This document shows positions 17,018 through 62,904 of a stretch of DNA of 64,000 nt, one piece after another. A program made the translations under genes and the position numbers. Position 1 is the first letter of the stretch. Each line of letters begins with the position of its first letter. The notes below the pieces were generated by a model. It was not told the DNA's origin and made no database searches. It worked only from the letters and a program-made list of their open reading frames with translations. The stretch lies in assembly GCA_965112155.1 (NCBI GenBank), contig OZ218101.1. The stretch is one strand, 5' to 3'. The DNA is from Podarcis liolepis. Lineage: Eukaryota.

Positions 17018-18034
17018 GCTTAGACATTGCTTTCATTAGCTGCATTCTTGCTTGGTGCTGCTTACAGATGCAGGTTATTCCCATCAAAATGCCACTCTAC
17101 GGTATCTCCCCATTTAATTCAGGTCTACCATTTCCGCAGACTATCCACTATGTAACAAACAGCAAGACAGAAATGGTAAATCTGGATTAGATGGGGTGGG
17201 TGGGTTTGTGGGATGGCATTTTGATGAAGACAACAACATTGTGTGATCACTGAAGGGAAAAAATAAACTTGCATGCATGAACATCTTAGGCTGTATGAAG
17301 AAGAATAAGTATTGTGGCCATGATTCTAGCATCCACTATGGGCTTGCATGAATATACAGCTGAATGGCTGATTATTATTATTTAATCACACGTTTATCCC
17401 TCTCTTCCACCAAGAAATTCAGGGCAGTATAAATGGTCCTCCCATTTTTTCCTTACAACAGCAACCCTGAGAGGTACAGGAGAGAGAATCTGGTCCAAGA
17501 CCACTCAGTAAGTTTCATGGCTCAGTTGGGAGCTGCTGCTCCAGCAATTGTAACCCTTGTACCACATTGGTTCTTATGAAATTGCTGTTTGTGTATTACA
17601 TTTGTATCACTATTTTCCTCCAAGGAGCTCAGAGTGACAGGGAAGCTTCAGAACAGCCCTGTGAAAAGGAGAGTCGTTAGAGGAGCTTCTGGGCAGGTGG
17701 TGTCTAATGCTACCCAGTATTGTTTTTCGACTGTAAGTTCCAGGAAGAACTTTGCAGTTGACCTTTAAGAGTATTCCAACACTTGGGAGCTTGGGGCTGC
17801 AGCTGAATTGCTCATCAGTTCTGAACTAACAAACTGCTAAAAGGATGTCTTTGCCACATCTGCTCCGTCATTATGGCTTCAGTGTCTGTATCTACTGTCC
17901 CCAGATTTAAGCTGCATGTGTTACCACCACCACATAAGAGAAGTAGCAGCAGAGCTTGCAGAAACAATTGAATTTGTTAGTATTTATTTAAAATAATTTC
18001 AGGGGGAGTTCAAGAGAGCTTACTTCTCTGCAAG

Positions 18035-18638: not shown

Positions 18639-19382
18639 CAGTGCCAGGTTTAGTATAAGCTAAACAAGCTATAGTTTAGGGCCCCACTCTTTTGGGGCCC
18701 CCCAAAAAAATTAAAGGAAAAAAACCTGGATGTACATTTCCAAAATATAAGATAAAAAACTAATAAAATGGCTTTAGATAAAAACTAATAAAATGGCTTT
18801 AGGTTTTCCCAGTAGTGATGTATTCAAGTGAGAGCTGGACCATAAAGAAGGCTGATCGCTGAAGAATTGATGCTTTTGAATTCTGGTGCTGGAGGAGACT
18901 CTTGAGAGTCCCATGGACTGCAAGAAGATCAAACCTATCCATTCTGAAGGAAATCAGCCCTGAGTGCTCACTGGAAGGACAGATCGTGAAGCTGAGGCTC
19001 CAATACCTTAGCCATCTCATGAGAAGAGAAGACTCCCTGGAAAAGACCCTGATGTTGGGAAAGATGGAGGGCACAAGGAGAAGGGGACGACAGAGGATGA
19101 GATGGTTGGACAGTGTTCTTGAAGCTACCAGCATGAGTTTGACCAAACTGCATGAGGCAGTGGAAGACAGGAGTGCCTGGCGTGCTCTGGTCCATGAGGT
19201 CACGAAGAGTCGGACATGACTAAATGACTAAACAACAACAACAAGATCCATAAATTACTATATTGCATATATTCAACACAAAAAACAGCGACAATTTGTT
19301 GTTGACAAAGGACAGCTGGACATATAAAGGGCCCCATTACCTTCAGTAGCTTAGGGCTTCATCAAACCTAAATCCGGCCCTG
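18639..19382. mobile_element. non-autonomous hAT element interrupted by Bov-B
   Basis: Imperfect TIR CAGTGCCAGGTTTAG / CTAAATCCGGCCCTG. 8-bp TSD TGGAAAGG/TAGAAAGG. Confidence 0.7.
18802..19244 (+). mobile_element. Bov-B (RTE) LINE, 5'-truncated
   Basis: ORF 18902-19219 reads RVPWTARRSN...GRQRMRWLDSV. (CAA)n tail. Confidence 0.9.
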
Positions 19383-21281
19383 TAGAAAGGTCTAGTAAAG
19401 ACAAAACCTGCTTTTGTGTCTGATTATGAAGGCATGGAATTTACGCATCTCTTTCTTTGCTTATTTAACTCAGGGGCCTAGTCATTCCGTTGCAATTTGG
19501 AACCCTGGGAATGGAGATATTCCAACAGGTAATCATTCAGTCACATCCTGTTCTTGATCTTCTGAAGTGCAGGGTTTCCTCTGCAATGACATCAAATCTA
19601 TGGAAACGTTTGAGCTATGTAAATACTCCTAGCAGTTGCAGTTAGATTTCACCCTGTTCTTTCATCATGAGAAAATTTCCAAAATGTCTGATGGGATTTT
19701 AATTTCTTGAATTTCTAAAGGTTAACCTTCTAACTTGAAATAATTTGACCCAGTAGAATAAAGCTCTGGACAATTATACACACAAACGAAAACAATGCAG
19801 CTGCTTTATGACTTTATTAGCACACATTACAAGGTCCCTGTCAGAATTAGAGCTCTGTCTCATTCTCTCCTTTGAAGCAAGCACACTTGAAAATGTCAGG
19901 CACTCCCAGCTATAGCAGCTTGCAGTGCTTATATATCTCAATGGAAAGTTTCGATAAATGAGGCCATAAAATTAGGTGTTGAAAGGTCATATGGTTTGAC
20001 CATCAATGTATCTAAGCAGTAGTCACATTGTTCACTTCAGTGTAAAGTTGTTACTGTTTGATTTTCGCCTCCTACCCGCCTGCCGCCCCACTTTTTTAAA
20101 AAAAGAAAACGCCAATCATTTTGTATGCCAGAATGGAAAGGAAGGTCTCTGGAGTTCTGTCTTGATGTTCCTGTCTGCAGCACAACTGCATTCCTTAATG
20201 AATGCTCAGGGCTCTATGTCTAATTTTGGAATTGAGTAAAATGAATTTGCTGCAATTCTCAATCACTGGGGAATAATCTTAATGTACTTCCCCCTACTGT
20301 TTATGTCTTTATGCAAACAGTGTCTCCTTAACAATGCCCATTGCAGCTAATTTGCAACTACAGATCTCAAAAATATTGTCTTCTAAAGTTTTAATAGAGC
20401 CCCATGCAACTTAATTATCCATTATTGGCAGCTTCTCTCCTGGGGTGATTAGTTGGATGAAGCTAGTGAACTTTGAAACTGCAAAATCTCAGATGGAAAG
20501 ATGATTAGTTTATTTAGCAAGAGACTGGGATAGGAGGGAATGATGGGACTCCCTCGACTCATCTTTGATCAACTTGTTTTCTCTATGGCAGGCTATTTCT
20601 TTGCATGGAAGAATCTCATTTAAAGTTTTGTTGGAGAGTTCTCCCTAACTGGAACAGTCCCTGTGTAAAGTTCACATGAATATGAATGAAAAATGAATTC
20701 ATCCATTCATCAGTGTACTTTTTAGATTTTAGTTTCTTCTTCTTAATAGGTCTCCTGATGTTACTGAAATCCATTCCGGGCACTCTGCAAGGCTGCCCAT
20801 TTCCTCTCAAGTTCCTGCCAGCTGAAGTGGTTTATCATGTTTTGATTCCCAAAAGGAAAAAAGGATAATTGAAAATCAATGTGGAGTCACATCAGGGACA
20901 TTTTTCTGACATTATGATAGTTAGCTATCTAGTTAACTCTATTTACATGCAAAAGACAGATGGCAATAATAGATTGCTATGTCCCAAGAAAGTTAAGGCC
21001 TTGTGAGAGTAGACCACAGAAAATGGTGCTATATTAAAATAAATGAAACAGAGTGGTCATTGAGATAAGCAGTCTAAAATCTTGCATCTTGTCTAGACAA
21101 ACAATACAATCCAACACATGCCTACTCAAAGCAACACCCTCAGAATTCTATCAACTTACTCCCAAGTAAGTCTACATTAACTTTAAAGCCTAAGTATGGC
21201 TAACTTACTGGTCCATAAATATATATATAAAAAGTACCAGTATTGCTTTCCAATATTGGGTCTGGTGACTTCTGTTTCAGT

Positions 21282-21360
21282 GTATTTGAAGAAGTGTGCA
21301 TGCACATGAAAGGTCGTACCAATAACTAACTGAGTTGGTATCTAAGGTGCTACTGGAATA
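21282..21360 (+). mobile_element. degenerate Penelope-like terminal repeat
   Basis: Diverged copy of 48802-48889 and 53587-53670. Confidence 0.65.
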
Positions 21361-21699
21361 ATTTATTTTGTTTTATTTATTTTTATTTTGTTTCAATATT
21401 TAAACGTTTACTCAGAAGTGCCACTTAGGCCAATGGTACAGTTGTAGCCTTAAATCAATCTTTTTCTCTCTCCCCCCCCCTTTTTTGGGGGGGGCCTCGG
21501 TGGGACAATTCTGCAGAGCATCATACATGGCTTTCCCCCACCAACTATCGCTTTTACCGTAACCCTGTGAGGTGGGCTAGGTGCACGGTCTTGTTTTAGT
21601 GCCTTCTGAGCATTCTATTTTTAAAGCACATTTTAGTCCCTGGTCCTCGTTTTTCCTCGTATGGAACATCTTAGCATTCATCTTTTTTTACAGAGTACT

Positions 21700-32000: not shown

Positions 32001-35000
32001 ACTTAAATATCTGCATTGCATTTCAAGGTGCAGAAGAGGAAATAACCAGGACTGTAGTGGAATTGTCACTTAGATGAAGGTGACGGTTTGCTGTGAACCT
32101 TAATGATCCGATGAGCTTGTAACTGACCTACCCACTGCTCTGCATTGTGAGGAAACATTATGCCGCTCCAGCCTCTTTGTAAGGAACATGTGACAAGAGG
32201 ACTTTGGACTGGCACTAAAATAAGTATGAAGTTCCAGATATACACATGCCAAGAAAATGGATTAGGAGAAACCACTGCTTTTTGCAATCTTAAAAAACCA
32301 AACATTTAATATGTACCTTAAGCCTGTGCATGTTTACTTAGAAGTAAACCCAGGTGAGTTCAACAAGGCTTACTTCTAAGTAAACGTGTACAGGATTGCA
32401 TCCTTAGAAATATTTGGACTATTACATTTTCTGTGACAGGTTCCAGGTTTATTTAGATTTCCTTAGGAACAGGGACTCTAATTTTGTGCCTTCTGAAAAT
32501 AAATCTAACAGAGAAACTGTACTTGTGCTTATGGTGTTTCACTTTGGTTGTAGTCAGTAGGTAGATGATATATAACAACAATTTAAAATAAATATATATG
32601 TATCTATTGTTCCTAAAGGACACTCTTGGGAAACCACCAGCTAAGGAAATTGCACTGACAGACCACTGTAAATACAAGTAAGTAGCTGTGGGTCAGGCTG
32701 CAATTCTATACATAAATACATCAGGAAAGTCCATTGAACGTAATAGAATTTACTTCTGAGTAGACATGCGCAGGATTGAACTGTCCGTCTAGAATTTATT
32801 GGGACTGTTTTCATCTGTCTATCTTGTTTTATGTTAAAATAGATACTGGAAAAGTCTTAAGACCATAAAGATGTTCAATTAAACATTAGTTGCAAGACAA
32901 GGCATTTGCTCCTATCTTCATGCTGCTGCTATTGGCACCTTTTGCCCTACCCTGAATTGTTTCACAAGCAGGAATATATGCATTCTGTTTGTGCCTTGGA
33001 GAATTGCTTGTCCGCTCCACCCTTATGAAAACTTTCTGTCACACAGTTGTGTTAGTTATTGTAATTTAAGGAAGGCATTCAAGGAATCCCAAAGAACCAC
33101 TATATCCCCTGGGTGCTACTAAGGATAATAAGTAGCTGATATGATTATACTCTGTGGAATATCAGCAGCTCTTCTGGTAAAGCAAACCGAAGGCACTCTC
33201 ATCTCCGGTCCCTTGAGTATCTCTGTGAGATATTTCAGTGCCACATGCAGATGATGATCCTGCAATACTAGTGTGTTAAATGACTTCCCTGAGGTCTTTT
33301 GGGAAGAGCAGAATGGTGCCTGGAATAGAAATTATGGATTCTGGCATGGAGGTTTTTTTAAGCAAAGTAACTTCTGCATTTGTGTTTTGATGCTGCATCC
33401 TGCCATCTCCCTGGCTTTTAAGGACAAAAACTTTGGCAACTAAGGTTCAGGCACTGTTGTGTTTTTATCTAAAATATTTTTTAGATAAATGTACTTTTGT
33501 AGACTGTTTATTTATAGGAACTCACTATAAGGGCCAGGATTGAAACCAAAATGCAAGCCAACACCATAGATCACTATTTCCCAAGCTTAGGTCTCCAGCT
33601 TGTTTTTGGACTACAGTTCCCATCATCTCTATCTAGCAGGACCAGTGGCCAGCGACGATGGGAATTGTAGTCTAAAAAAACCCTGGAAACCCAAATTTGG
33701 GAAGCACTGCCATAGATGGAGCAACTGTGGTTACGGAAGTTTTGATTTGCCGTATTTGTCTTTCGATACTCTGTGGCAAGAGTCAAATGGCTTATGTTCT
33801 TCCCATATGACCCTTCTGTAAAGCAATTAATGTAGTGAATAACCAAGTTGAGGAAGAAAAGCCATGCCCTTCTCATAGAACTATATGAAGGAGACCTAAC
33901 CGATCTTCGGAGATAGGCAGCTTGCTGCCCTCCAGACATTGGACTACAATTCCCATCAACCCTGACCCCATTGGCCCCACTGGCTGGGGGTGATGGGAGC
34001 TGTAGTCCAACTATATCTGGCAGGCACCTTGTTGGCTAACTTGGATGTAGTCCTGCTTGAACAATGATCAGATCTTTCAAGAGCATGCAAGCATTTATTA
34101 ATTGTTGTAAATTATTCAAGTTTGAATCTCTAGAAGAATAAAATTCACCTAAAGCTGCATAACCCAGTTTTGTTCAATGATTAAATAAATGCACTGGTTA
34201 CTGGAGGAGAGGGAATATTATAAGATGGTGTCTGTTTTTATTATACAGATACCTCTTCAACTTCCGAGGTGTGGCTGCCAGTTTCCGCTTCAAGCATCTC
34301 TTTTTGTGCAACTCGCTGGTGTTTCATGTAGGGGAAGACTGGCTGGAGTTCTTCTACCCTCAGCTGAAACCTTGGGTTCACTACATCCCAGTCAAATCAG
34401 ATCTCTCTGATGTCAGGTGAGAAGTTGAAACTGAAGCTGCAGTGGCATAATAACCGCTCCTTGCGTACTGAGGTAGAAACATCAATGTACCATGGGAGCT
34501 TCCAGACCAGCTGTTTGTTGAACATCCTTGCTGATACATTCACTTGGAGGTCATACAACTTTGCCCACTTTGTTTCAGGGAGCTGCTGCAGTTTGTGAGA
34601 GAAAATGACGAGGTAGCCCAAGAAATTTCAAAGAGGTAAGTTTTCCTTATATGTAACTTTTGTGTAGCTTCCATGAGGCAATTATTCCCACTGCAGAGCA
34701 CCAGCTGTTGTGATGACTGGCAGAGGTCATAATAGCTTTTGAAAATAAAACTTGCAAAGGCTCAAGGGCAATGAAATTCAGAACCCTTTTAAACAGTCAG
34801 TGAAATTCCATCCCAAATTCCTTCCTTCAGTATTAGTGTGGTATCATGTTCAGATATGTCTCCTCCTAAGTCATACTTTGAGCTGACCTGTTGAAATCAG
34901 TGGACATGACTAACTTAAATTCAATGATCTCAGTGACTCTGACTTATGTATACAGGTCAACGCGCCCCAACAAAATCCTGTGTCAGGGAGAGGCAAATGG

Positions 35001-36366
35001 GGAAAGAGCTGAGGGGAGAAAAAAGCACTTACAGAGAGCCGAAAGAGACAATTAGTAGTCTGTCGTCTGATAGCGAAGAGGAGGCAGCGAGGTGGGAGGA
35101 TGAGCCCGGAACTAGTCATTCTGTAAACAGAGGAAATCAGAGGCGTGGTTTCCGCAGACTTGCATGTTGGGCAAAAAAAAGTAAAAAGAAAACAGATGTG
35201 GCATCTTTGCCGACTGGGTCGGACATGATTTGAAGCACTGGAGATGTTCTTTTGAACTTTGTAAATAAATCAAAGAGATTGTAACTGGCAGCGAGCCCGG
35301 AGTTTTTATCTATGCCGGCTTGGCAGCACACACCTCTTACACCCTGATTGGGTATGTGTTCTCATGCAATATACCTAACCTTCAAATAATTGTAAGGAAT
35401 GTTTAGCATAAGGTTGGGCATTATTATGAGGGGAACAGAGGAGATTGTTTACTGTTTGTTGCTTTGGAAAAGAGGACCACTCCTGAAAGGGAAAGTTACT
35501 ATGCGGATCAGTGGTTTTAGTAGTTCTTAAATTAAAAAAGCATTGACTTTTTGATGTAAAGGAAGAATGCACTCCCAGTTCTTCTCCCTTTTAGCCATGG
35601 ATGGAAGTTTCAAGACATGAGTTGAACATTCCTGTGCCTGATGTTGATCCTGGGAAAGATGGGCATGGTTTGCCCACAAGGCCCTGGCAGGCTGATCTCT
35701 GAGACCTGGAGGGCATAGTTAGTCCTGTGTGTCAAAGGTCTCCCACCACTGGGATCTTCAACATAATCAAAATTAAAATCCTGTGACACCTTAAACACAC
35801 AGAAATGTGCTGAGGTTAAGATCTGGGGATTGAATGTACCTGCCAAATGTACAAAAGTTGCCCATGAAAGCTTATCCCACAAAATGTTAATCCTTACCAT
35901 GTCTTATAATTCCTTGCATTTGCTGCAAGTGACTGGTTTGGTTTCTGTACTGTAGTTTCTCCCTACAAACATTATTGCTGTTCTCTTTAAAATCAAATTA
36001 ACTATCATAACTTCATGCCCAAGGAAACCTGAGAGCTCTAGCTTAATGGAGCAGATAATTTTCTGTTAGCAGTCCCTAGCCCTTCCCTCACAGCACTCCC
36101 GTTCCTTGAAGAGATGCACTGATCATTAAGCCAGTTTTCATCCTTAGTTCTTGAGGTATGAAAGCCACTAACTGTAGTCATTCTCTTTGCTTGTCTTTCT
36201 TGCCTCTAGAGGTCGCCAGTTCATCATGGACCACTTGCGAATGGAGGATATCTCTTGTTACTGGGAGAGACTTCTGACTGAATACTCCAAAACCCTAACT
36301 TACAAAGTTAAACGAAAGAGTCACTACAGTGAGATTTCATCCAGAAACTTGAAAACAGAACTGTAA
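22650..36366 (+). CDS. POGLUT1: protein O-glucosyltransferase 1 (Rumi/KTELC1), 11 coding exons, 388 aa
   Basis: join(22650-22722,24716-24806,26068-26211,28276-28411,28541-28662,29471-29530,30586-30685,32619-32677,34249-34416,34579-34635,36210-36366) = 1167 nt, open frame, all GT-AG. Signal peptide, [23 protein letters not shown] and C-terminal KTEL. Confidence 0.97.
24205..24262 (+). mobile_element. 5S rRNA-derived SINE fragment
   Basis: GAAGCTAAACAGATCTAGGCCTGGTTAGTGCCTGGATGGG resembles the 5S internal control region but is diverged and partial. Confidence 0.55.
24716..24806 (+). CDS. POGLUT1: POGLUT1 exon 2
   Basis: [29 protein letters not shown]. Confidence 0.95.
24891..25196. mobile_element. 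Tc1/mariner-type MITE
   Basis: TA TSD. TIR CAGTGGTGCC...GGCACCACTG. Same family as 60120-60464. Confidence 0.85.
26068..26211 (+). CDS. POGLUT1: POGLUT1 exon 3
   Basis: VREQDLAPF...LGTHYQII...DCMFPA. Confidence 0.95.
28276..28411 (+). CDS. POGLUT1: POGLUT1 exon 4
   Basis: [37 protein letters not shown]. Confidence 0.96.
28541..28662 (+). CDS. POGLUT1: POGLUT1 exon 5
   Basis: [37 protein letters not shown]. Confidence 0.96.
29471..29530 (+). CDS. POGLUT1: POGLUT1 exon 6
   Basis: [19 protein letters not shown]. Confidence 0.95.
29747..29961 (-). mobile_element. Bov-B 3' fragment
   Basis: Same 3' end as 3644-4137. 11-bp TSD AAAACAGCTGT (29736-29746 and 29962-29972). Confidence 0.88.
30586..30685 (+). 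CDS. POGLUT1: POGLUT1 exon 7
   Basis: [33 protein letters not shown]. Confidence 0.96.
32619..32677 (+). CDS. POGLUT1: POGLUT1 exon 8
   Basis: [19 protein letters not shown]. Confidence 0.95.
34249..34416 (+). CDS. POGLUT1: POGLUT1 exon 9
   Basis: [48 protein letters not shown]. Confidence 0.96.
34579..34635 (+). CDS. POGLUT1: POGLUT1 exon 10
   Basis: [18 protein letters not shown]. Confidence 0.95.
34981..35341 (+). mobile_element. probable solo LTR
   Basis: TGTCAGGG...CTCTTACA ends, 5-bp flanks TCCTG/CCCTG (1 mismatch), AATAAA near 35265. Confidence 0.5.
36210..36366 (+). CDS. POGLUT1: POGLUT1 exon 11 (last coding)
   Basis: [27 protein letters not shown]...LKTEL*. Confidence 0.96.
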
Positions 36367-46400: not shown

Positions 46401-48071
46401 TATGGAATTGGTAGTTCCATAAAAATCCATATACTGTTGGTGTAATGGGCCCGTGGCTTGATTTTAGCATTATTTGTAGAATCCTCTCAAAATCTATGGC
46501 AATTGACAAATGGCACACTAGCAACAATGGCATTTTCTGGGTATCTTGTGATCTCAAGGGTGGGCTATAGCCATTTTTCTAGCCACCCAGTCCTATTTGC
46601 TAAAGTGGCTAACAGTATAGGTAATTTTAAACATTGAAGGAGCATAGGAGAACTCTATTTCTTCCAGATGTTTTGGACTACAGCACCCATCAGCCTGAGG
46701 TAGCATTGCCTAATGGTCAGGGATGATGGGAGCAATAATCCAGCAACAACTGGAGTGCCCTAGATTGGAGAAGACTGTTCTAGCACCAAGTTAATAATGC
46801 TTTATGGAGCATTCTAATTTATTAGAAAGCATTATTCACTCCCACTTGGTTGTATCACATGTAGTATTTCCCAGCCTCTTCGCTACATAGTTTCTGTATT
46901 AGTTTTCTCCCCTTGTACACTGGTTTTAAAGTTATAACCTGAATAAAAATACAAGAGGGGAAGAACATTTTACAATTATGAACAGCCTTCTAGAGCTGTT
47001 TCCAGATGAAAATTTTATCCTATAGTTTTAATATATTTCTCATATATTCAGTGTCCAGTTTGTTCATTCACTTTTCTGTGTGAACTGATCAGTTTGTCCT
47101 ATGCAGGCATGTGGGCAATGGCAGATACAATGTAGGTGAAAAAGCCCTTTATAGCATTTCATTGAGCCCTATTGAAAGTGTTTCCAGGATGTATGAAGGG
47201 AAGAAAGGGTTGTCTTTAAGAAAAAAATAGTTGTCATGTGGAGGATTGTGTGAAGGAATAGTCTCTGTTTGAAACAATTCGTTACAGACCGTTAATGATT
47301 TGTCAGTGGTAAATGGATTGGCTTCAGCCTAAAATGTTTGTTTGTTTTTTAAAATGTATTTTTATTAAAGATTTCTTAGTGTAAAAAAACACGTGTGTTA
47401 TCTCTTTTTTCAAGTTGTGTTTTCTACAGTTTGGTTTCATTTGTTGTGAGACATTAGTGTTACATACAATGTTAGGTTAGGAAGAAAAGAGGAGGCGAGA
47501 GGGGAAAGGGTGGGTAGGGTGGGGTGGAGTGGTTATGTCTCCATTCTTCTACTTAGTGTATGTGTGGGGTTTTGTGTCAGCGTCACTTGTCTGGGTTCCC
47601 TTACTATTCGCTCGTTGTGTTTCCTTGGTGGGGAGAGAGGTTGGGGTTGGCCTTGGGTGTGGTTGGTTGTCTTTGGGTGGCTGTAGTGAGATTTGTTTTT
47701 GTCAGTGAGCGGTGTGTGTGTGTGTATTTTTGAATCAGGTTAGCCAGATTGATTCGTATGCTGTTGGTGGATTCTTGTCATTGTCTTGTTAGGCTGTGTA
47801 TGTGATAAAGGGGAGCCATACTGGGGTGAAGGCATCTTCTTCTATTTGTCCCTGTGTCAGTTTCAGTTTATTAGTTAGTTTTTCTAATAAGTTTCAGCCT
47901 CCAATGTTAATGGTGATATAAGCATATGAGGTGCAGTTTTGTTTTCCTCTCAGAAGTACAACCATGTTCTTTTTTCTTTTTCTTTTTAGGAGGACCAGGC
48001 TCAGCGTCACTGAAAACATCTCAAAGGAAATGGATGATGTACTTCAGGAAGGAGCTTCTCCCAGATCATGA
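40046..48071 (+). CDS. TIMMDC1: complex I assembly factor TIMMDC1 (Tim17 family), 7 exons, 252 aa
   Basis: join(40046-40209,40524-40689,41821-41909,42998-43065,45083-45161,46089-46199,47990-48071) = 759 nt, open frame. [26 protein letters not shown] and [19 protein letters not shown] match TIMMDC1. Syntenic with POGLUT1 and CD80. Confidence 0.95.
40524..40689 (+). CDS. TIMMDC1: TIMMDC1 exon 2
   Basis: [13 protein letters not shown]...[10 protein letters not shown]...HNRLDAA. Confidence 0.95.
40800..41340 (+). mobile_element. old CR1-type LINE 3' fragment
   Basis: Decayed CR1 ORF2-end sequence (AGGGCAACCAAAACTATCAAG...TTTAGTTTAGAAAA...TTCTTCACAC). Boundaries approximate. Confidence 0.5.
41821..41909 (+). 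CDS. TIMMDC1: TIMMDC1 exon 3
   Basis: [29 protein letters not shown]. Confidence 0.96.
42998..43065 (+). CDS. TIMMDC1: TIMMDC1 exon 4
   Basis: [22 protein letters not shown]. Confidence 0.95.
45083..45161 (+). CDS. TIMMDC1: TIMMDC1 exon 5
   Basis: [25 protein letters not shown]. Confidence 0.95.
46089..46199 (+). CDS. TIMMDC1: TIMMDC1 exon 6
   Basis: [36 protein letters not shown]. Confidence 0.95.
47339..47892 (-). mobile_element. L1/Tx1-type LINE 3' fragment
   Basis: Poly-T plus TTTATT at the left end. Flanking direct repeat TTCAGCCTAAAATGTT / TTCAGCCTCCAATGTT. Confidence 0.6.
47990..48071 (+). CDS. TIMMDC1: TIMMDC1 exon 7 (last coding)
   Basis: Strong polypyrimidine acceptor. [32 protein letters not shown] at 48398-48403. 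Confidence 0.85.
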
Positions 48072-48709
48072 GTGAAAACAAATGTTTTTAGTATTGCACA
48101 CTGGAACGCTTAACAAGTGGTGTTAAAAGTTTTTCTTGTGGCCTGTTGCTCAGTACACAATGGACTCTCTTGAAGAGCTCCTAGGTTTTGTCAGATAAAC
48201 CAGGAACATGGAAAGTTCAGCTTCAGGTGATGACTAGCTCCCTCTTTAGTTGGGAGAGGAATAAGCTTGAATTACTTCTCTGGATAGAGAAAATACAAAA
48301 TTCACTTTTTGGGGATATGCTCTAAGGGATAACATGGGTGTATTCCGAAGGTCTCCAGGGTAAGTTGATTGGTTGAACGGTGGAGTAAATCTAAAACAAT
48401 AAAGAAAAATAATAATTATTTTGAAAGTTCATTGCTATATGAATTCTTGGGTTTGGTGCCACTCTTCTTTTGAATGCAGTACTATAAATCTTAACTTACC
48501 TTTGACCTTACTACGTACCAGGAGACATGGGTGCTGGCGGGGAGCTAGGGCTCCCCCAATATTTCTGAATAAAGCACTGCCCCCCAAGGTCTGCGGCAGC
48601 CATGTGTGCATGCTCATGTCATGTGTTGAAGCTGTGGGGCTTCCACACAACACGTCAGCAAAAATGTTCTGCCATTACAATATAAAACAGCATTGACTAG
48701 CTTTGGTAT

Positions 48710-48926
48710 AAAAAAATTCCTTCCTGTAGCACCTTAAAGACCAACTAAGTTAGTTCTTGGTATAAGCTTTCGTGTGCATGCACACTTCTTCAGATGTGTG
48801 TATCTGAAGAAGTGTGCATGCACACGAAAGCTTATACCAAGAACTAACTTAGTTGGTCTTTAAGGTGCTACAGGAAGGAATTTTTTTATTTTGACTATGG
48901 CAGACCAACACGGCTACCCATCTGTA
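48710..48926 (+). mobile_element. Penelope-like element end with inverted duplication
   Basis: Perfect 88-bp inverted arms (48708-48795 and 48802-48889). 14-bp TSD ACTAGCTTTGGTAT (48696-48709 and 48927-48940). Confidence 0.8.
48800..48837 (+). ncRNA. minimal hammerhead ribozyme motif (Penelope type)
   Basis: GUAU-CUGAAGA-A-GUGUG(CAUG)CACAC-GAAAGCUU-AUAC: catalytic core, stem II, palindromic AGCU in place of stem III, and a 4-bp stem I. Confidence 0.65.
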
Positions 48927-49871
48927 ACTAGCTTTGGTATGTTTCACTTGGAAGGAGTTCCCTTGGAATAAATGAGAAAATAATGGTGATATTGCAGTGT
49001 CCTGCCTCCCTGCCCCTGATGTTCCATGTCCCCAACAGCCATTACTGGGCTGCTCTTTATTAATATACAGTAACCATAAAACATAAACAAAATTAATTAG
49101 TAAATTCAACAATAAAATCTACAACCTCCTTACAACTGCAGCAAGTTAAGTTTCCTGTGGGCTTTAACAGGATACTACCAGTATATTTTTTTTATCGGGT
49201 TGTCAAAATGTTCTGTGCCTACGTGTTTTGTTGAGAATTGTGAAGCTGCACACGCTTTGACTATTTGTTGCTGGTGGTTGTAGTATTTGTATACTGATCC
49301 CCCCCCCACGAGCTCAAGGATGTGTGCATTGTCTTCCACTTCCCCATTTTTATTTTCACAACTGCTCTGTGAAGTAAGATATGCTGAGAGCTGGTAGTTT
49401 AGACACCGAAGTTGTGAAACTACACATACTTAAGAACATTTTCTGCTTTTTATTTATTGGGGTTGACAAACATTTTTTGTTTTGCCATTTTGCTGTAAGT
49501 ATGAAGACTATGAAATGTAGTAGTTAAAACATTGTATTACATGATCTGTGATACAAATATGTATCTTGCTTTTCTACTCAGGAGCCCGAGGTTGTATACA
49601 TTATCCTCTCCTTCCCTCTTTTATCTTGGCCTAGCCTACCTCGCAGGGCTGGTGCAAAGTTAATAAGCAGCAGATCTCTCCATCAGCTTTTGGGGTGTGT
49701 GCAGGGGCCTCACATCACATGCAGTGTACCAGGTCCTGGAAAAACCCTGTTGGCATCCTTGTGTACAATCCCAACTCAGTTGGCTACAGATTTTCAGGAT
49801 TTTTTAAAAGCGCATTCATGCCCAATATACCAAAGTTTGTCCTAAAATAGTGGCATTTCCTGCAGTATAAG

Positions 49872-50596
49872 TGTTACAGAAAAATCTAGGTGCGAGGCTG
49901 CTCAGTCACCCAGCTTGTCGGGCAGAGCCTGTCGGTCCCTGCGGAATAAAGGAAGGAGTCCAGCCACCAATCAGAGCAAATAGCTGTAGACCAAAGTTTA
50001 TTGTGCAGCAGGTTCAAAGAGGAATGGGGTGACAATGACTTTTAAAACTTTCCCACCATATCCAAAATACAGTTTGTATTTTATCATTGCTACATCACTG
50101 ACATGTCACAAAAGGGGAGGAGTAGATGGGTTACACTAGTTTAACCTTGGCAAACATGTCCAGACAAGTCCTTGGTACAAGATTAGCATAAGCAGACATG
50201 TCAGGGCAAGGCCCAGGTATAAGATTAGCATAGGCAAACACCTCTGAGTCCTACCGCCCAAAATACAATAGAACTTCCTTTGCATGTCTGGCAAGTCTGG
50301 TGATGGGATTAGGCTTTCCTTGGCCAACAATCAGCTCAGCAGTTGTCACCTCTGGTCACTTCCTGGGGTAGGAGGTGTGTATACACATCCTCATGCTTGG
50401 GGAGGTGGCAGGGAAAAGAGTCGTTTTTCCAAGGGCAAAATAGTGTTGAAATGGAGGAAACTGGCAAAGGAGTTGATTTTATATGATTGTTAAAGCTAGG
50501 TAACTTCCCTGAGCTGTCAAGTCGAAAGGATACATTTATGCATTATATTTGTAACAACTTTAAAGATGTGCCCCCCCCCCCGTAATTTCTGTAACA
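49872..50596 (-). mobile_element. solo LTR (725 bp)
   Basis: 11-bp terminal inverted repeats TGTTACAGAAA...TTTCTGTAACA, perfect 5-bp TSD ATAAG, AATAAA on the - strand near 50000. Confidence 0.8.
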
Positions 50597-53427: not shown

Positions 53428-56400
53428 CTGAAACGTCAATGGGTTCAGCAACATTGAACAGAAAATCTTTACCAACGTGACTAAGAATTTTTAAAATATG
53501 TCAAAGAGTGGGGGTGGGCAGAACTCCCATTAGTCATGAGGGTGGAGCATGGGTCAAAAAGTCAATAAAGAACAACAAAACTTGTTCTGAAGAAGTGTGC
53601 ATCCACACGAAAGCTCATACCAAGAACTAACTTAGTTGGTCTTTAAGGTGCTACTGGAAGGATTTTTTTTATTTTGACTATGGCAGACCAACACGGCTAC
53701 CTATCTGTAACAACAAAACATAGGCTAAGAGGCGATGACCGGTCAGGGTCACCCAGTGAGCTTCATAGCTGAGGGGGGATTTGAACTCTAGTCTCCCATG
53801 TCTTAATCCAGGGGTGGGATACTTTTGGACTTGCAGATGTCACTAAACTACAAATCCCACCATCCCAGGCCATTGGCCATGCTTGCTGGGGCTGAGGAGA
53901 GTTGCAGTTCAGCAACATCTGCAGAGGCAAAGGTTCCCCACCCCTATCCTAATCCAACACTCTAACCCATGGGTTGGCAAACTAAGGCCCAGGGGCCGGA
54001 TGTGGCCCAATTGCCTTCTGGATCCAGCCCACAGATGGTCCGGGAATGGCTGCATGGATCAGCGCAGGGATTCTGATGGTTCGGGCTGCGCCATTTCCCC
54101 CCCTCCCTCACACACACCGTGGTAGCGCCTCCTCCCTCCTGGCTTCTCCCAGCCCTGCCTAGAGGAGGAAGGGGGCTGGGCTTTGTTGATGGCTGAGCGC
54201 CGTTTTAAGCAGCCCCTCTCTGGAGCCAGCCCTTTCACGTCACTCATTGTCCCTCCGCTGCCGCCGCCAACCCCTGCCACTCCCAACGCATGGGTAAGCG
54301 ACCACCGGGTCTCATCCAGTGTTGTGGAGAAGGGAAGGGAGAGTCGGGGGGATTTTTTCCTCCAAAATATAGTCTGGCCCCCCACAAGTTCTGAGGGACA
54401 GTGGACCGGCCCCCTGCGGAAAAAGTTTGCTGACCCCTGCTCTAACCACTACACCACTCAGAACTAGCACTCTGAATTGTTCTCAGAAGTTAGAAAAAAG
54501 TTCAGACGAGCAAATACGGCCTATCAGCAGACAGAGTAGCAGAGTTCAGTAATAGCCAAAGCTTTGGAAGTTTGGGACTTATTCCACTTTGCAACTAATT
54601 TTAAGATTGCAAAGGAGTCTAAATACAAAGTAGTTTCTGAGTTTGTATTTAGATTGTAAGCCTGCAGTCACATATGTTACCTTCCACATGCCGAACTATT
54701 TGACACAGCATCTCTTGTAAATAAAATAAATAAAAATAATTTTAAACTTCATCTCTATTATCCTGCAGTATGTGTTGCTTTCCATAATACTGTTGCAGGT
54801 TCCCACTAGTGCATCACATCCATGCATGCTCTGAATAATTCATTTATAGTTGAAGAATACATTTAACCAATCCCTGATTTTTTTCAAATAAAACTGGTGC
54901 AAATTGAAATGTTTCATGGTCATTTGGTTCTGGGGTGGTAGTTGAAAATACCACTTTGTGTATATCACTAGCTTCATTGGCCTAACATTATGAAAACTGG
55001 AACTGTCTTCTTGCCTGCATACATTAGAAGAACCAGCTACTAGAATTGCCCTTTCATTCACCGAAAGGGGAACCTGAAGACAACCAATGTAACTTGCAGC
55101 CAGAGGCATTTTTAACAGGCAGTTGCCCTGAAGAACAAACTCACTGACCCCCCCAACTCCCCTCTTTCAAAGGTCAGGTTTAATTCTCAAGATTGCGTGC
55201 TAGGGGTGTGGGGAAATTCTTTTACATATTTATTTACATTGTGGAATATAGGCTAGGGAAGTTGGAGCGTTCTTAAGAAGCAGAGGGTATAATGTTTTCA
55301 GAGTGTGGCTTCATTCCCTTTTACGAAGCTGCAGCACTAAGCTTAAGGAATCTGGAGGCAACATTTTCTCAGGAAAAATGTTTGCAGACTCACAACTCAG
55401 CCACGTAACCTGGAAAAGAATATGGTCCAGCACTATGGCTCCAGTTGAATATTGGGGCTCATTCACACTTGTTTCCCAATGCACATATATTTCAGTTTGC
55501 CTTGGGATGATGGCTGCCCTCCCTCCCCACCACTTAGTGTTATTTTTTTGCTGAGCTGAAATATTCCTGGTTTGGGAGGGGTTGTGTGTTGTTGTTTTTT
55601 AAAGTATGATTTTAGCTTGTTGCTTTTAGTCCTGTAAACCTCTTACTATATTTTTTATGAATTCGCGGGCAGCACGCCAGGGAAAGGGCCCATTGCCCTA
55701 GTGGGACTAGAAATATTGTTAAATAAATAGGATTGCATCCAATGCTGGCCTTACTCAAAGTAGACCCACTGAAATTAATGAACATGATGAACTTGGGCTC
55801 ATTAATTTCAGTGGGCCTAGTCTGTACTGAGCTTAGCTGGATACAACCCATGAAAAGCAAACATTCATTTCCTAACATGGCTACAGTTTAAGTTGAGCAT
55901 GTAATGAGCCTAAGGATCTGCTTGCAATGTTTGGCCACAGCCCTGGAACATGTAAACTATGAACAATGGTTTGTTTCCAGTGGTAACCTAAGGGTTTATG
56001 AAACGATACCTATTGCATTTATATGCTGCCTTTCTTCTTGGTGGTGTGCATGGTTCTTCTACCCCTATTATTCTGGTAACAAGGCTGTGAGATAGGCTAG
56101 GCTAAGAGACAACTGATTAGAAGTCTTGACGGCTAAGTGCGGATTTTAACCTGGGTCTCTAAATTCCTAGCAGGGCGCTCAACCACACCACAGTTTCCTA
56201 CATTGGTTGGTCACAAAGGCATCGGAACTTACTGCGGCGGCGGCATCGGAGGAATGTTGGCACTATCACGAGAGCAAGGACGAGGATAACAATGGAAGCC
56301 GCTATGAAACCATGCGGAGGAGGCGGTGGAGATGAATTGGGGCACTTCCCTATTGCTGAAATGAGAGAATTGAAGATAAATCTGTGACTACACTGAAGAG

Positions 56401-59400
56401 CCCAAGGGGCACATGAGAAGCAATACTTTGGGGCACTGAGTGCCACTTATCTGAGTGGAGCACTTCCAACATTAAGTTAGTTTTCCTTTCTCCTGTTTAA
56501 ACTTGAAACCCACCTACATATGGAAATCATGGCCATCGCTTAATGTCTTACATTTCCCTCCATCTACTTGATAATATTGTAAGGATAAACAAATGGATAC
56601 CACATTCCAAGCTGAGGCACAGGAATATTTGCTGCCTGCACCCACACCCACACACCCACAGGAACATACAAATAATCCAAGACAGTGACTTGGTTTTGCA
56701 TTTCTCACTGGTTCAGCTAAATAGTTACAATGCTATCTATATTTTTTGCTAGTGTTTCTGGTACTGTTCAAGATGGAATCCATGAAAAAGCAGAAATGTC
56801 CCATCAGCTGACCAAATATTTTCAGCTGTGATGCTAAACTTCTATAGGAAGAAATAATAATAATAAAAGATACAGTGTCTTCCTAACAACACACAGCTAT
56901 TTTAGATCCAGAGATAAAGACTCGCCAAATTAATGGTCATTTGTCATTTGTAGATCTCCCTATATGGAACCAATCTCATTTGAAAAAATCTGAGGTTTAG
57001 TCCTTGTAAGTCTTCTGAATGGCTATATTTCACAAATGAGAAACACTGTCTCAGTGTATGATTGAGGGAACTTACACAAGAGGTGGTCGGTGGACACTTG
57101 TAAACCTGCATAATGTATTCGACATTGGACCAAGATATCTTCAGACACATTTTGCTGTAAGTTGCCAGTAATATTAAAACTTTCAGTGTAGTTGTCCTTT
57201 ATGGAAGTATAGGAACACCGCACTGTCTCATTATTGACCAACCAAGACATCGTAGCCTCTGGATATCCTCCATAAGAAGAACACATCAGTGTCAACTGAG
57301 CTGGGCCACAGGGATTATGTGATACATGTATGACAGGCTTCCTATAGTCAGCTAGAGGGAGGAAAAGACAGTAAGATCACAAGTTACACTTGTACATATT
57401 GAGATGTCAAACAATGTTATTGGCACTATGCTTAAGGATTGTTTTTCTACAGAAATATCAAATTTAATCTGACTTGCAGTTGAACATCAGAGTGCTCTTT
57501 AGGAAATCCCATTCATTTCAACGGGAGACACTCGTAGAGGTTCCTGCCATGGCTTGTAATCTAAATGGTGCTATATTACTAAGAGTTCTAAATTACTTTT
57601 TATGGTAAGAGTTCTTATTATAACGGGTTAATAGCATCCTTTCTCTCGGACATAATATAATGCTGGGAGATTGGGAAAGGTTATGGAAGAAAGGGGTTAA
57701 GTTTACTGCATGTACAATGTTAAAGGAAAATATTATGAAAATGATGTATAGATGGTACTTAACCCCTGTAAAATTAGCAAAGATGTATTATAATAGTGAT
57801 AATCTCTGTTGGAAGTGTAAAGAAAAAGAAGGTACCCTTTTTCATATGTGATGGACCTGTCCCAAGGTGAAAGACTTCTGGGAAAAGATTTACAATGAAT
57901 TGGGAAAAAAATATGTTGAAATATACCGGGTACATTTATTAAGAAACCGGAGGCCTTTCTTCTTGGCATAACAGGTTTGGAATTGCCCAAGAAAGATGTT
58001 AAATTATTTTTGTATGCCACAACGGCTGCTTGAATTTTACTAGCCAAGAACTGGAAAATACAAGAAGTATCAACTGTGGAAGATTGGCAGATGAAGATGA
58101 TGCACTTTTCGGAGCTAGCTGACCTTACGGGAAGAATCCGCAACCAGAAAGAAGAGGAATACCAAGAAGATTGGAAGAAATTTAAGGACTACCTGAACAA
58201 TTATTATAATATTAAAAACTAGAAATCATTTGAAAGCACCAAAGAGGCCTAGGATTAAATTAGGATTTATTAAATAAATTGGGTTTAGAATAGTAATAAA
58301 AGTGAATAAGTTAGATAATAATTGGAAATATTTTTGTTGAAGAATGATATTGGAAAGCTGTTACATACAGATACAAGGAAACTCAGAATGGAGGGATTAG
58401 AGGAAGTCAACCAATATGTAAACAAGGTTGGGTTGTAAAGGTTTAAGATTATTTTCTCCTATGTTGTGGTTTTGGTTATGTCTTTGTTGTAATGTATTGT
58501 ACTGTTTTTTCTTTTGGTATGTGTGTTTTTTTCCCTTTTTTCCTTTTCTTTTTTCTTTTTTGTTAGATTGTAAGTGTTGTAATTGTGGAAAATTCAATAA
58601 AAAAATTTGGGGGGAAAAATAGTATCCTTTCTCTCAAATTCACATTCCCCTCATAGCAACGTTGAGTAATGTTGGACCCAAGAGACTATATGTTTGTTTG
58701 TGTCTGTTAATTATTAGCATTTAAGTTAAATAAAATAACACTAAACAAATTCAAAAGCATTTATATATTTATAATTAACGCTTTTACTTGAATGAGTAAT
58801 AATATATTATTCTGGAATGAATGTTACTGTACTATTAATATCTTATCGTTATGTATACCACTGTCTTTTATAATTCATGGAGACTTTGTTTACGTCAAAT
58901 GTCAGGGTATTTAGATTTTATGTTTATTTCATATATGATGCCTTCTGAGGGCTTGACCCTAAAAGGAAGCATAAAATAATACTCTCCTGCTCGTTGTCAT
59001 ACACCTAAAGGGATATGTTTTTAGGATAACTTAAGCAATATTTAGCAGCAATAATATTGAGTGGAGAGAGCTGAGCTGGGTCAGTGGATGGAGTCGGGAA
59101 CGTAACTGGGAAGCAGAGGACCGCCAGTCACCAATGCATGTGAAAGTGTGTTTCATTTCCTATTTTCAAAAGAAGTTCTCAGCTTCCAGTTGTCAGCCAT
59201 CTTGGAACTGCTGCACAAAGCGCTTTGGCCTTCCTAGGCCTGGGGTTTGGGAAGCACTTGTGGGGAGATAAGGATTTGGCCCACTGGGCCAAAATGTCCC
59301 CATGTCCCTGCTGTAAGGCCTACTGCATGTCTAAGTCAAAAGTAGCAGTGGCTTATGGGAAGGAGACCAACCGTAAGTGGAGCCAGAGTCAATGACAGGC

Positions 59401-60031
59401 AGAGCAAGCTAATTTCACCCCCAATCTCTCCCCTCCCTGCCGCTAAATTCTATTTGGGCAACACAGACTAAGGAGGAGGAAGCTTGCAGGCAATGCCACC
59501 CATTGGGCTGGGTGTGAAGAAACAGGGAAGTTGGAGCTGGCTGAGGATAGATAGGTTGGTGGAGCAGTGCTCTATTTGCCCCAGGGAACCAGCCTCCGAC
59601 AGTAGAAAAGTGACTCAAAATGAACAGCCCCTGTCTAACACAAATGAATAGGACCCTTAAGTATTGCTTGGGTACTTGAAATCCTGTTTTGCTAGACAAG
59701 CACTTACCTGACACTGATAAATGTACCCATTTATCACCTTTGTGTTCTTCCTCCAGTAATATGATACACCTATATTTGCCTTGATCGGACACATTCACAC
59801 CGGAGATCCAAAGTGTAAGATTCTTCTCATCCATCTTTGTCCTGTTCTGGAAATGTATGTCTTTTACGGTGTTTTCTTCGCCGTTGCTGTAAGCTATCAC
59901 AACCAGGTCAGATATATCAGGGCCTACGTATTTCTGCCAGTAGATCCTGTAAGATGCCAGGGGCCGTTGCATTTTGTAGTTGCAAGGGAGTGTGGCTACA
60001 CCCCCTATTTTGGCTGTTACCGGGACAGGGT
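53339..60031 (-). CDS. CD80: T-lymphocyte costimulatory ligand CD80 (B7-1), 5'-partial
   Basis: complement join(59708-60031 IgV, 57076-57351 IgC, 56233-56355 TM, 55647-55706, 53339-53427), all phase-1 junctions in frame. VATLPC..YRIYWQK..DQGKYRC. Tail-to-tail with TIMMDC1 as in mammals. Signal-peptide exon not found in the window. Confidence 0.85.
53582..53708 (+). mobile_element. Penelope-like element end with hammerhead core
   Basis: Near-identical to 48804-48926. 11-bp TSD AACAACAAAAC (53571-53581 and 53709-53719). Confidence 0.8.
53968..54439. mobile_element. non-autonomous hAT element
   Basis: TIR CATGGGTTGGCAAACT/AGTTTGCTGACCCCTG, perfect 8-bp TSD CTCTAACC. Confidence 0.8.
55647..55706 (-). 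CDS. CD80: CD80 probable small cytoplasmic exon
   Basis: tttctag / gtaaga sites, 60 nt, phase 1-1. IPLGQWALSLACCPRIHKKY. Confidence 0.55.
56233..56355 (-). CDS. CD80: CD80 stalk/transmembrane exon
   Basis: SIGKCPNSSPPPPPHGFIAASIVILVLALVIVPTFLRCRRR, donor gtaagt. Confidence 0.85.
57076..57351 (-). CDS. CD80: CD80 IgC exon
   Basis: ADYRKPVI...LTLMCSSYGGYPEATMSWL...FNITGNL...VQCRIHY, 276 nt. Confidence 0.92.
57648..58617 (+). mobile_element. L1 LINE, 5'-truncated (ORF2 C-terminus plus 3' UTR)
   Basis: MYRWYLTPVKL...CWKCKEKEGTLFHM zinc knuckle. 18-bp TSD AATAGCATCCTTTCTCTC / AATAGTATCCTTTCTCTC. Confidence 0.88.
59708..60031 (-). CDS. CD80: CD80 IgV exon
   Basis: PVPVTAKIGGVATLPCNY...YWQK...FQNRTKMD..NLTLWISGVNVSDQGKYRC, 324 nt. 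Confidence 0.93.
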
Positions 60032-60119
60032 CTGGGGAGGAAGAAAACAAGAAACAGGATCTCGTGAAACAGATGCTTGTTCTTCAAGTCCTTCCTCACA
60101 TCTCTGCGTTGAAACAATA

Positions 60120-60464
60120 CAGTGGTGCCTCGCAAGACGAAATTAATTCGTTCCGCGAGTTTTTTCGTCTAGTGAATTTTTCGTCTTGCGAACCACGGTG
60201 TCAGAAAAGTTTTGGAAAAGCTTCAAAAATCACCAAAAACCTCAAAAAAGGCTACCACACCGCGTTCTATGAGTTGCTCCTCGAAGTCAAGTCGCAACTG
60301 TATTAACGGTGTTAAGAAAAAGGAAACAAACTTTCAAGACGTTTCCGTCTTGCGAAGCAAGCCCATAGGGAAATTTGTCTTGCGAAGCAGCTCAAAAACC
60401 GCAAAACCCTTTCGTCTAGCAGGTTTTTCGTCTTGTGAGGCATTCGTCTTGCGGGGCACCACTG
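60120..60464. mobile_element. Tc1/mariner-type MITE
   Basis: TA TSD. TIR CAGTGGTGCC/GGCACCACTG. Same family as 24891-25196, opposite orientation. Confidence 0.85.
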
Positions 60465-62904
60465 TACTTTGCAAAAAGGGAAGGGAGATTCAGATATACA
60501 ACACACACACTGGCCATCAGTCATTAATGAAACAAGGATTTCTGAAGGAGTTCAACCTACTATTAATTCCACAATCAGTTCCCATTAGTGGTGCAATAAA
60601 TTTCCCCATACTCTCCCACAAAGATACCTCTCTTTGACTTGTCAGTGACTGTTTGCAGCCTCCATTATTTCTGCTTTCTGTTTTTCCTGTCCCATTTCCC
60701 CGATTGCATGATCCCAGAATACCAGAAATTAAATGGTGAGCATGATGGTGCCACAACATGGCACAGCTTTCATATGTGATGACCTCCAAATGGGTCATTT
60801 CAGTGTGAGGAAGCTGGAGTAGCTCAGTTGGTAGACCATGGTAGGGCATAATCTCAGGGTTGAGGGATGAAGCACCACATTGAGTAAAAGTTTCCTGCAT
60901 TGCTATATGATCTTTGTGGTACCTTCCAGCTCTATGACTTTTTAGCACATTTGCCCTCATTCTGAATGGGGCAGGTAGGGGAGAGAGAGCAACACAAAGC
61001 GTGGAAGAGATCTAAGTAAGAGTAACTTGGAATTACAATATAGAACAAGTAAAGAGGGGAGCACTTTGTCACCTTTTAGCATAGTTCTCTGAAAAATTGC
61101 CAAGAGAGGGGTGTATTTTCATGGGGGAGGCGAGGGAACATTTTTTCAAAACACACACTCTTCAGCTTAGTCCTGCTTAGGAGAAAACGCCGTTATAAGG
61201 GGATTTATTGTCTGAATCATGCTTGTCTGGATGAAGGCTAAAGAGAGGTGTATGAGTGTGTGGAGAAGTCAGCCTATTGTATAAAGTCAATAGTTAACTT
61301 TGTTGTTCTGCTCGCTTTTGCCTCTAGCCTTTCCCACCACTAGAATGTGGCTCCCAAAGGGTTATCCAGAGGGAATGAAAAAGGTTCCCCAATCCTGGTT
61401 TGAATCCACTGAATGTTATTCATGAAATATCTCTGAATTGCAAACCTCTATACATCTAAATTTCAGAAGACAACATTAAAACTGGTCACATGCATCGATT
61501 CCATTGTTCTATTCCGGTTTGCCTTTTCTCCTTGAACTATTGGTTTGCATGCTTGTAGGCATTTTCCCTGCTGTCAGGACTGTTGTTGTTGTTGTTGTTG
61601 TTGTTGTTTTTTAAAAAAACCCTTCCCTAAAATAAATGAATCCAGGCTAATGTAGCTGTGTCTCTCCCCCCCCCCCCGTCTTCAGTTGTGATTTGTGTAT
61701 TGCAAGGGGTTGGACTAGATTACCAGTGGGGTCTCTTCCAACTCTACAATTCTACGATTCTATGTACATATATCATGAAATAATTTGGTACAGGCTGTGA
61801 ATAAAAGGGACGGAATCTTTTGACAAAATTACGGAGGATCTGGGGTTATATATGTAGAGAGTAGAACTAGATTTATATAATTTAATCTTTTTAATAACTA
61901 TAATAAAAAGGCAGGGTGGAAATGATAGGCAATAAATAAGTTAATAACAGTTTTCATATAGCAAAGCCCAATATAGGTTTCTGAGTTGAAACCACAGGAA
62001 TAACTTGGTAGCATTTAATTATTTATGGAATTTATGTAGTGCCCAATTAGCCACATCCCCTGGGTGGTTCACAAATTTAAAAACGATAAAATACAACTAC
62101 TATTTTCCCCCAAAACCCCCCACAAAATCATAAAAATAGTGTATAAAAATGGCACAGAAATCATCATAAAGCCATCATGAGGCAGCATAAGATGAAGAAC
62201 AATAAAAACAGCACTAAAACCCAGCCAAGGGGGAAAACAAAATACTTTAAGGAACTAAAATGTACTAGAACCATAGTTACTAAGAGAACATAATTTGCTA
62301 AAATGCAGCTGGGCTATGTTTAGAGTAAATACAGCAGAATTTGGCAACTGAAAATTGTTTGTAGAAAGGATCTGTCAAGATAGAGATTGTATAGAACTTT
62401 CCCTAACATTAGACAGAGGGAAGTGGCTGCCTCAGGTTGTGAATTTGGGGTGTGATAAAAGTTCAGCAAACGGTTCTTTATTTAATTGATCATTGCTGTG
62501 TGGTTTTTTTGCTGCCAGGAAGAAGGTGCCAAAATAATTTGCCTCAGGTGTGAAATTTGTTCAGTCTCAGGTGCCAAAATAATTTGTCTAGCATATCACC
62601 TGTACTTTGGTTATCTCCAAAATCCAGGGGCAATTTCAGACATTTAAGGTCTGGTTTCACCTTGAGGGCTCAGTCCTCTCAGCATAGGCTGCAATTCTTA
62701 CAGAGGAGCAGCACAATAGTACTGTGATTGGTGCCCAGCTCTGCCTTGGGACCTCTGAGAAGAAGGCATGTGTGGTTGCCAGTCCATTTCAGTTTTAAAT
62801 TCTGCATCTGGTTTTTTGCTTTACTTCTTACTTGTTGTTTTAACTTTTTATTCTAAAACTGCAGAGAACTTTGGTTGCTGGGTAGCATATAAATGTTGTG
62901 AAAA

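Follow-up and report, generated by a model that had tools for sequence, protein, structure and literature searches.

A young palindromic insertion, probably a doubled stub of a Penelope-like terminal repeat, in the likely 3' UTR of TIMMDC1

Inverted pLTRs, one-sided tails and target-site duplications (TSDs) make up the standard layout of Penelope-like element (PLE) insertions (PMC8557442, PMC3846280, PMC8969392). Published examples show an inverted pLTR that is 37 bp shorter than the direct one, with an optional 31-bp tail and TSDs of 8-10 bp (PMC3846280), or an inverted, 5'-truncated copy with a 30-40-bp tail at one end (PMC8557442). The route by which the inverted repeats form has been described as undefined to date (PMC8557442), and the in vivo role of the hammerhead ribozymes that PLEs carry is open (PMC4209133, PMC11167929). 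Minimal hammerheads paired on opposite strands, 100-700 bp apart, were reported in 2014 (PMC4209133). With regard to the mechanism, the protein of an anole PLE nicks and extends both target strands, starts at two internal positions that delimit the tail and integrates RNA in the uncut state, and no reads were seen to end at the ribozyme site (PMC11167929). In green anoles, 16,208 polymorphic Penelope insertions have been counted (PMC7561263). The non-LTR retrozymes are related to pLTRs, with reptile consensus lengths that average 176 bp and rare exonic copies in 3' UTRs (bioRxiv 10.64898/2026.07.22.740005).

We consider it probable that the insertion described here is a stub of a PLE terminal repeat, doubled head-to-head, likely during insertion, and likely located in the 3' UTR of TIMMDC1, with a hairpin predicted to block its hammerhead. 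Taken by itself, the locus is a young PLE insertion of an ordinary, published layout. The arrangement is not unusual, as both opposite-strand hammerhead pairs and inverted pLTRs with a one-sided tail had already been published. What is new here is the set of empty sites that date the insertion as young.

Anatomy, age and surroundings of the insertion

The window, i.e. the whole 64-kb stretch of DNA that was analysed, contains two exactly reverse-complementary arms of 88 bp each (48708-48795 and 48802-48889), separated by a 6-nt GTGTGT loop (48796-48801). They lie in a 217-bp insert enclosed by a 14-bp direct repeat (48696-48709 and 48927-48940), and all of these dimensions, as first annotated, were confirmed on the sequence. 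The palindrome is beyond chance: the runner-up among the perfect palindromes of the window has arms of only 17 bp, the insert has a folding z-score of -24.3, and none of 200 shuffles equalled the native fold. In the insert, an inverted copy of 48802-48889 comes first and a forward unit (48798-48926) follows, which extends 37 nt beyond its mirror (48890-48926). The parts are as follows.

48696..48709, no strand: target-site duplication, left copy, 14 bp, the final two bases (AT) being common to the inverted arm
48708..48795, minus strand: pLTR stub, inverted and tail-less, 88 bp, by sequence comparison
48796..48801, no strand: head-to-head junction spacer, 6 nt; 48798-48801 are family letters, whereas 48796-97 differ
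48798..48926, plus strand: pLTR stub, forward, 129 bp, comprising hammerhead, body and tail; 96% identical to the copy at 53586
48890..48926, plus strand: tail, 37 nt, in the forward arm only; family ends cluster behind 48892 and 48929 (for the concept, see PMC8557442 and PMC11167929)
48927..48940, no strand: target-site duplication, right copy, the first 3-4 bases probably also belonging to the element end, as family contigs align to 48929-48931

Two bases are thus shared with the target duplication at the left junction, and family contigs align 3-5 bases into it at the right junction. Three variants, at 48833, 48872 and 48880, are common to both arms and absent from both other copies in the window, so that the arms are either of a single origin or homogenised. 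In the tail (48897-48926), an ATG starts a frame, MADQHGYPSV, that extends as far as the end of the element. By analogy with rotifer PLEs, in which pLTR and tail encode the first ORF residues (PMC3846280), this frame could represent the beginning of the ORF of the parent element.

The age of the insertion was assessed on contigs from four of 24 listed sequencing runs: X1, which may be the assembly's own sample; X3, with the same species label, from a different sample and study; X4, from another species; and X15, from a third species. Three of the four (X3, X4 and X15) show an empty site, with one contig each joining 48695 to 48927 and holding a single copy of the duplication. Differences from the window number 13 in about 1,744 positions for the X3 contig, 15 in about 1,770 for that of X4 and 23 in about 1,088 for that of X15. 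With empty sites in three of the four runs, one of them a sample with the same species label, the insertion is young, as had been proposed, and it is polymorphic or lineage-restricted. The identity of arms and TSDs (0 differences in 102 positions) by itself bounds the divergence only to less than 2.9%.

That the inversion arose as an assembly or library artefact is highly improbable. Perfect palindromes are a known type of chimera, and the loop is uncovered among the X1 contigs listed, the left-junction contig including just 7 insert bases; PLE structures also give assemblers trouble (PMC8557442). Nevertheless, independent X1 contigs (47900-48716 and 48902-49900) span the outer junctions on either side without a single difference, the TSD is present exactly once in the empty allele, and further inverted centres are shared between runs.

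The gene upstream of the insert is TIMMDC1, with TIMMDC1 of Podarcis muralis being 98% identical (the best of seven homologue matches), which makes the host a lacertid lizard. There are seven exon matches, the last ending at 48068, and the insert begins 639 bp after the stop. Other searches of the product gave Tim17 in Pfam at E 0.017 and an Atlas best of 0.80, and its identity was settled by the homologue search. The transcript and the neighbouring gene are placed as follows.

47990..48071, plus strand: coding part of the last TIMMDC1 exon, with the stop at 48069-48071, from homologue and exon matches
48072..49307, plus strand: TIMMDC1 3' UTR, from one spliced X15 contig of a relative's empty allele
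56201..60083, minus strand: exons of a CD80-like gene (V-set, C2-set and probable transmembrane), the convergent neighbour

The X15 contig begins with 200 loose letters, the last 30 of which match the previous TIMMDC1 exon (46169 onward), there is no depth in the intron bin, and the contig reaches 49307; a second X15 contig, of lower depth, carries on to 49900. As the spliced contig crosses the insertion site, the insert likely sits in the TIMMDC1 3' UTR and not between genes. This evidence comprises one contig of one run that we guess to be RNA, from a species without the insertion, its strand and ends not being given. Of the location first annotated, about 640 bp past the stop and between convergent genes, the distance and the convergent CD80-like gene are correct, whereas the intergenic placement is not. 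Transcription of the insert had also been thought to need read-through, which is not the case on the plus strand, since the site lies within the 3' UTR of the relative. AATAAA occurs in the UTR region at 48398, 48568, 48967 and 49111, and because the first two are upstream of the insert, shorter isoforms may skip the hairpin. No description of TIMMDC1-CD80 synteny was found in the literature searched.

Other features of the window include three copies of another repeat (3644-4085, 18802-19243 and 29747-29959), 93-94% identical, which we take to resemble the end of an RTE/Bov-B LINE. An intact ORF of 338 aa on the minus strand (9279-10295) presumably carries olfactory-receptor-like motifs. Possible DNA-transposon ends are seen at 24886-25199 and 60117-60469, as inverted matches of 74-79 bp that contain short internal repeats. 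Short repeats of hairpin type are found at 55765-55815, 32332-32385 and 16872-17026 (arms of 17, 16 and 45 bp, respectively), and an assembly gap of 128 N is located at 4565-4692.

Hammerhead motifs and their predicted folding

Each arm carries a hammerhead motif or part of one.

48800..48837, plus strand: minimal type I hammerhead motif with a predicted cut after U48833, by the consensus of PMC4209133, with no Rfam detection
48760..48797, minus strand: hammerhead core with C3 at 48793 and stem I down to 2 bp, from the sequence

On the plus strand, the core comprises CUGAAGA (48804-10) and an extra A (48811), followed by a 5-bp, G-C-opened stem II (48812-16 with 48821-25), GAAA (48826-29), the palindromic AGCU (48829-32) and the cleavage site, with a 4-bp stem I (48800-03 with 48834-37) enclosing the whole. 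The plus arm agrees with the entire minimal type I consensus, including CUGANGA, NUH and the palindromic 15.2-16.2 (PMC4209133), so the minimal, dimer-type hammerhead first annotated, extra A included, is upheld. The core recurs unchanged on the minus strand (from 48793), but with stem I reduced to 2 bp there, as the loop gives ACAU and not GUAU, against 4-5 bp in the consensus. The claim of a hammerhead on both strands therefore stands in full for the plus strand and for the core only on the minus strand. The assignment is a match to the published minimal-hammerhead consensus (PMC4209133) and not to Rfam. A covariance-model search, which the first-pass annotation had proposed, gave no hammerhead match in Rfam at E up to 10, either in 3 kb around the insert or in 48796-48860, the shorter interval yielding no match at all.

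Folding predictions strongly favour the hairpin, with -170.8 kcal/mol for the full hairpin vs -113.4 kcal/mol for a forced hammerhead. The predicted pairing probability of stem I is below 1e-37 in the full insert. The earlier idea that the hairpin merely competes with the ribozyme understates the case, since the hairpin wins by 57 kcal/mol and the antisense arm precedes the core in transcription, whichever the direction. Because the hairpin outcompetes the ribozyme, the minus-strand stem I is short and there is no tandem hammerhead partner at the insert, cleavage at the TIMMDC1 insert is unlikely.

In keeping with this, we regard it as very improbable that the hammerheads at the insert cut the TIMMDC1 transcript or an antisense one. 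The core is intact on both strands, the palindromic stem III is predicted to pair between molecules (-6.3 kcal/mol), and a PLE hammerhead of the anole is activated by protein (PMC11167929). To the penalty of the hammerhead fold, the order of transcription and the lack of a tandem partner must be added a stem I probability of 0.2 in the prediction for the isolated arm, and the published in vitro results: monomers of minimal hammerheads are inactive and dimers weak (PMC4209133), and 8 of 9 Xenopus dimers failed to cleave (bioRxiv 2026.07.22.740005). The hammerhead is thus predicted to be a passenger, which would have served the source element and would be silent here.

The family and the proposed insertion mechanism

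Two other copies of the family are found in the window.

53571..53719, plus strand: second copy, one tailed forward stub within an 11-bp TSD of its own (53571-81 and 53709-19), by sequence comparison
21259..21374, plus strand: third copy, older (84%), with extra upstream element sequence, ending at the tail-less boundary, by sequence comparison

The element part of the second copy (53586-53709) is 96% identical to the forward stub; its head carries five additional bases, which read as the reverse complement of a stretch of its own TSD. The matched part of the third copy (21280-21374) is without the tail, and its upstream letters match the loose-end consensus ahead of 48798. There, the sequence directly upstream of the hammerhead (21259-21279) closes with a pyrimidine run and CAG; judging from their sequence, these might serve as an initiator or a splice acceptor, and they may account for the accumulation of element heads at 48800 described below. 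A splice acceptor at stem I is known in Penelope of D. virilis (PMC4209133). Weak nhmmer matches at 41586, 35762-35882, 34024 and 51927 (E 0.04-1.7) were not counted as copies; the two at 35762-35882, on opposite strands (E 0.14 and 1.7), may represent an ancient head-to-head copy from a related family. Partial tandems of direct pLTRs, a trait of longer PLE copies, are not seen among the three copies of the window.

Outside the window, contigs of the family number in the thousands: 8,994, 7,503 and 7,422 contigs of the three DNA runs (X1, X3 and X4, respectively) were aligned, with depth concentrated on the element, and 1,904, 1,748 and 1,576 of them are at least 99% alike, these being short contigs and not copy numbers. 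The summed element depth is 48,000-104,000 times that of the flank, which is likewise no copy number and shows only that the family is very abundant. The suggestion of a recently mobile family is supported. A scan of metagenomes with a 29-nt family pattern gave 0 matches, and one with an 18-letter pattern gave 19, none extending beyond 24 nt, which we took as chance.

The ends of these copies cluster. Among the 24 of 584 rows listed, loose ends with unrelated flanks pile up before 48800, the base of stem I (48, 47 and 42 contigs in X1, X3 and X4), and copies that continue upstream depart at 48798 (31, 33 and 32 contigs). At the other end, family ends lie behind 48892 (14, 19 and 22 contigs) and behind 48929 (28 in X3 and 32 in X4, with no X1 row among those listed); rows behind 48893 have letters in common, so that this cluster is partly a subfamily variant. 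Joints between left-arm and right-arm pieces number 162, and the 15 listed have differing centres, which makes head-to-head copies a trait of the family. In 11 of these 15 one arm starts at 48795-48805, with 0-5 shared letters, and in the other 4 neither arm is at the head. Two of the 15 have an arm whose first base is 48834, directly following the predicted cut, one of them with both arms there; these are the joints 48762-48834 and 48793-48834, the former being found in X1 and X4.

No telomerase-like RT or GIY-YIG ORF was recognised by eye among the 26 ORFs of at least 120 aa in the window. The assignment to the PLEs, which we hold to be likely, is made on four structural features, all of which are present: a hammerhead in a terminal repeat, an inverted 5'-truncated copy, a one-sided tail, and a variable TSD with an empty site. 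The Penelope-like origin given in the first-pass annotation is thereby retained. A DNA-transposon MITE or a microRNA precursor with a chance hammerhead-like motif would also show a long inverted repeat, with a TSD in the former case, and Rfam miRNA models do score the hairpin. However, all 18 miRNA matches in the 3 kb are of a generic hairpin kind and below the gathering score and the locus is absent in relatives, which speaks against a microRNA, while the arms are asymmetric owing to the tail, the centres vary among copies and the TSD is not of fixed length (11 bp at the single-arm copy vs 14 bp here). We therefore give this reading very little credence.

With regard to the doubling of the stub, we propose a priming step on both strands, which as a whole we hold to have an even chance of being right. 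The GIY-YIG endonuclease would nick both target strands, 14 bp apart, and the reverse transcriptase would extend from both nicks, beginning at the distal internal start site (the tail end, about 48926-30) from the bottom-strand nick and at the proximal one (about 48887-92) from the top-strand nick. Both cDNAs would halt near the RNA head (48798-48802), which might be set by a start site or by a splice acceptor, both being possible, and would then be end-joined. The result would be two head-to-head cDNAs, one with and one without a tail, inside a TSD. The copy would be short (about 130 bp) because the priming is internal, about 90-130 nt from the preferred RNA head. This both-strand model of the inversion is our own; PMC11167929 draws no link to inversions, and no both-strand or twin-priming model of PLE inversions was found in the literature searched, the coverage of which is incomplete. 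In the anole PLE the starts have no homology to the cut DNA, whereas 2-4 nt of homology are present at both junctions here, in a different family (PMC11167929).

An alternative to both-strand priming is a fold-back, in which the cDNA reaches the RNA head, snaps back and copies itself, its end being joined by microhomology or after a nick at the tail boundary. We see this as a serious candidate, albeit with somewhat less than an even chance. Junction palindromes have been read as self-priming (PMC3846280), the tail has been ascribed to endonuclease-mediated resolution (PMC8557442), the tail-bearing arm is longer at the head in this copy (48798 vs 48802), and the 11 joints with one arm at the head have the other at varied stops. 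However, for the inverted arm to stop at the tail boundary the fold-back needs an additional step, whereas two RT start sites account for this end directly; 2-4 untemplated bases are required in this loop; and 4 of the 15 joints listed have no arm at the head. Judged from its sequence, this copy fits both-strand priming and fold-back alike.

A more general picture, in which lacertid genomes would hold thousands of mini-palindromes recording PLE integration by both-strand priming, with the cut-start subset as a record of in vivo cleavage and the young ones altering host mRNA output, appears improbable to us as a whole. A family that is abundant, recently mobile and readable end to end provides a test case for the two models of inversion and for the hint of cut-site usage.

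Host transcript and comparison with known systems

If the host is affected at all, the dsRNA hairpin and not cleavage would be the cause. The longest perfect helix predicted in the UTR is 89 bp with the insert vs 12 bp without it. It is conceivable, but in our view rather unlikely, that TIMMDC1 expression is lowered through editing, retention, dicing or dsRNA sensing of the perfect 88-bp hairpin. The site is transcribed in a relative (X15), and inverted Alu pairs in human 3' UTRs behave in this way (PMC11263572). On the other hand, two of the poly(A) signals lie upstream of the insert, and one study reports inverted Alus to be without effect on localisation (PMC3458544). Hairpins of this kind are probably frequent and tolerated, given the great abundance of the family. 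The insertion allele is most likely near-neutral. It also provides a natural experiment in which the 3' UTR of a gene for mitochondrial complex I assembly occurs with and without a perfect 88-bp hairpin.

Among the known systems, the closest in layout are the EN+ PLE insertions, which are alike in the head-to-head inverted terminal copy, the palindromic junction, the tail at one end and the variable TSD (PMC3846280, PMC8557442). In contrast to these, the insert has no ORF or internal body, consisting only of the 129-bp stub and its 88-bp mirror, and its TSD is 14 bp vs 8-10 bp in the rotifer examples (PMC3846280). The metazoan PLE minimal type I hammerheads exhibit the same CUGAAGA, the extra nucleotide after A9, the G10.1-C11.1 pair, the 5-bp stem II, the AGCU stem III, U17 and the 4-bp stem I; their pairs are 100-700 bp apart, whereas the cores here are about 10 nt apart within a perfect hairpin (PMC4209133). 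Compared by eye, the motif of the turtle Chrysemys picta (Fig. S3 of PMC4209133) shares the core, the extra A and GCUU, and differs by one both-sided change in each of stem I and stem II and by the loop, loop II being shorter here; in that figure it is without the asterisk of PLE-linked motifs.

In Poseidon PAc of Anolis carolinensis, as here, about 115 nt separate the hammerhead from an AC-rich end downstream of it, the tail is likewise bounded by two ends, and copies retain an uncut ribozyme (PMC11167929). It belongs to a different sequence family, and the junction homology of 2-4 nt is a property of the present insert. Non-LTR retrozymes are likewise non-coding, hammerhead-bearing and pLTR-related. 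They are head-to-tail tandems, whereas the insert is head-to-head with one intact stem I (bioRxiv 10.64898/2026.07.22.740005), and this layout without a tandem unit led us to reject a retrozyme identity. Finally, the inverted Alu pairs of human 3' UTRs are likewise retroelement dsRNA in an mRNA tail (PMC11263572). Compared with them, the palindrome at TIMMDC1 likely arose in one insertion event, is perfectly paired around a 6-nt loop, and is shorter and lineage-restricted.
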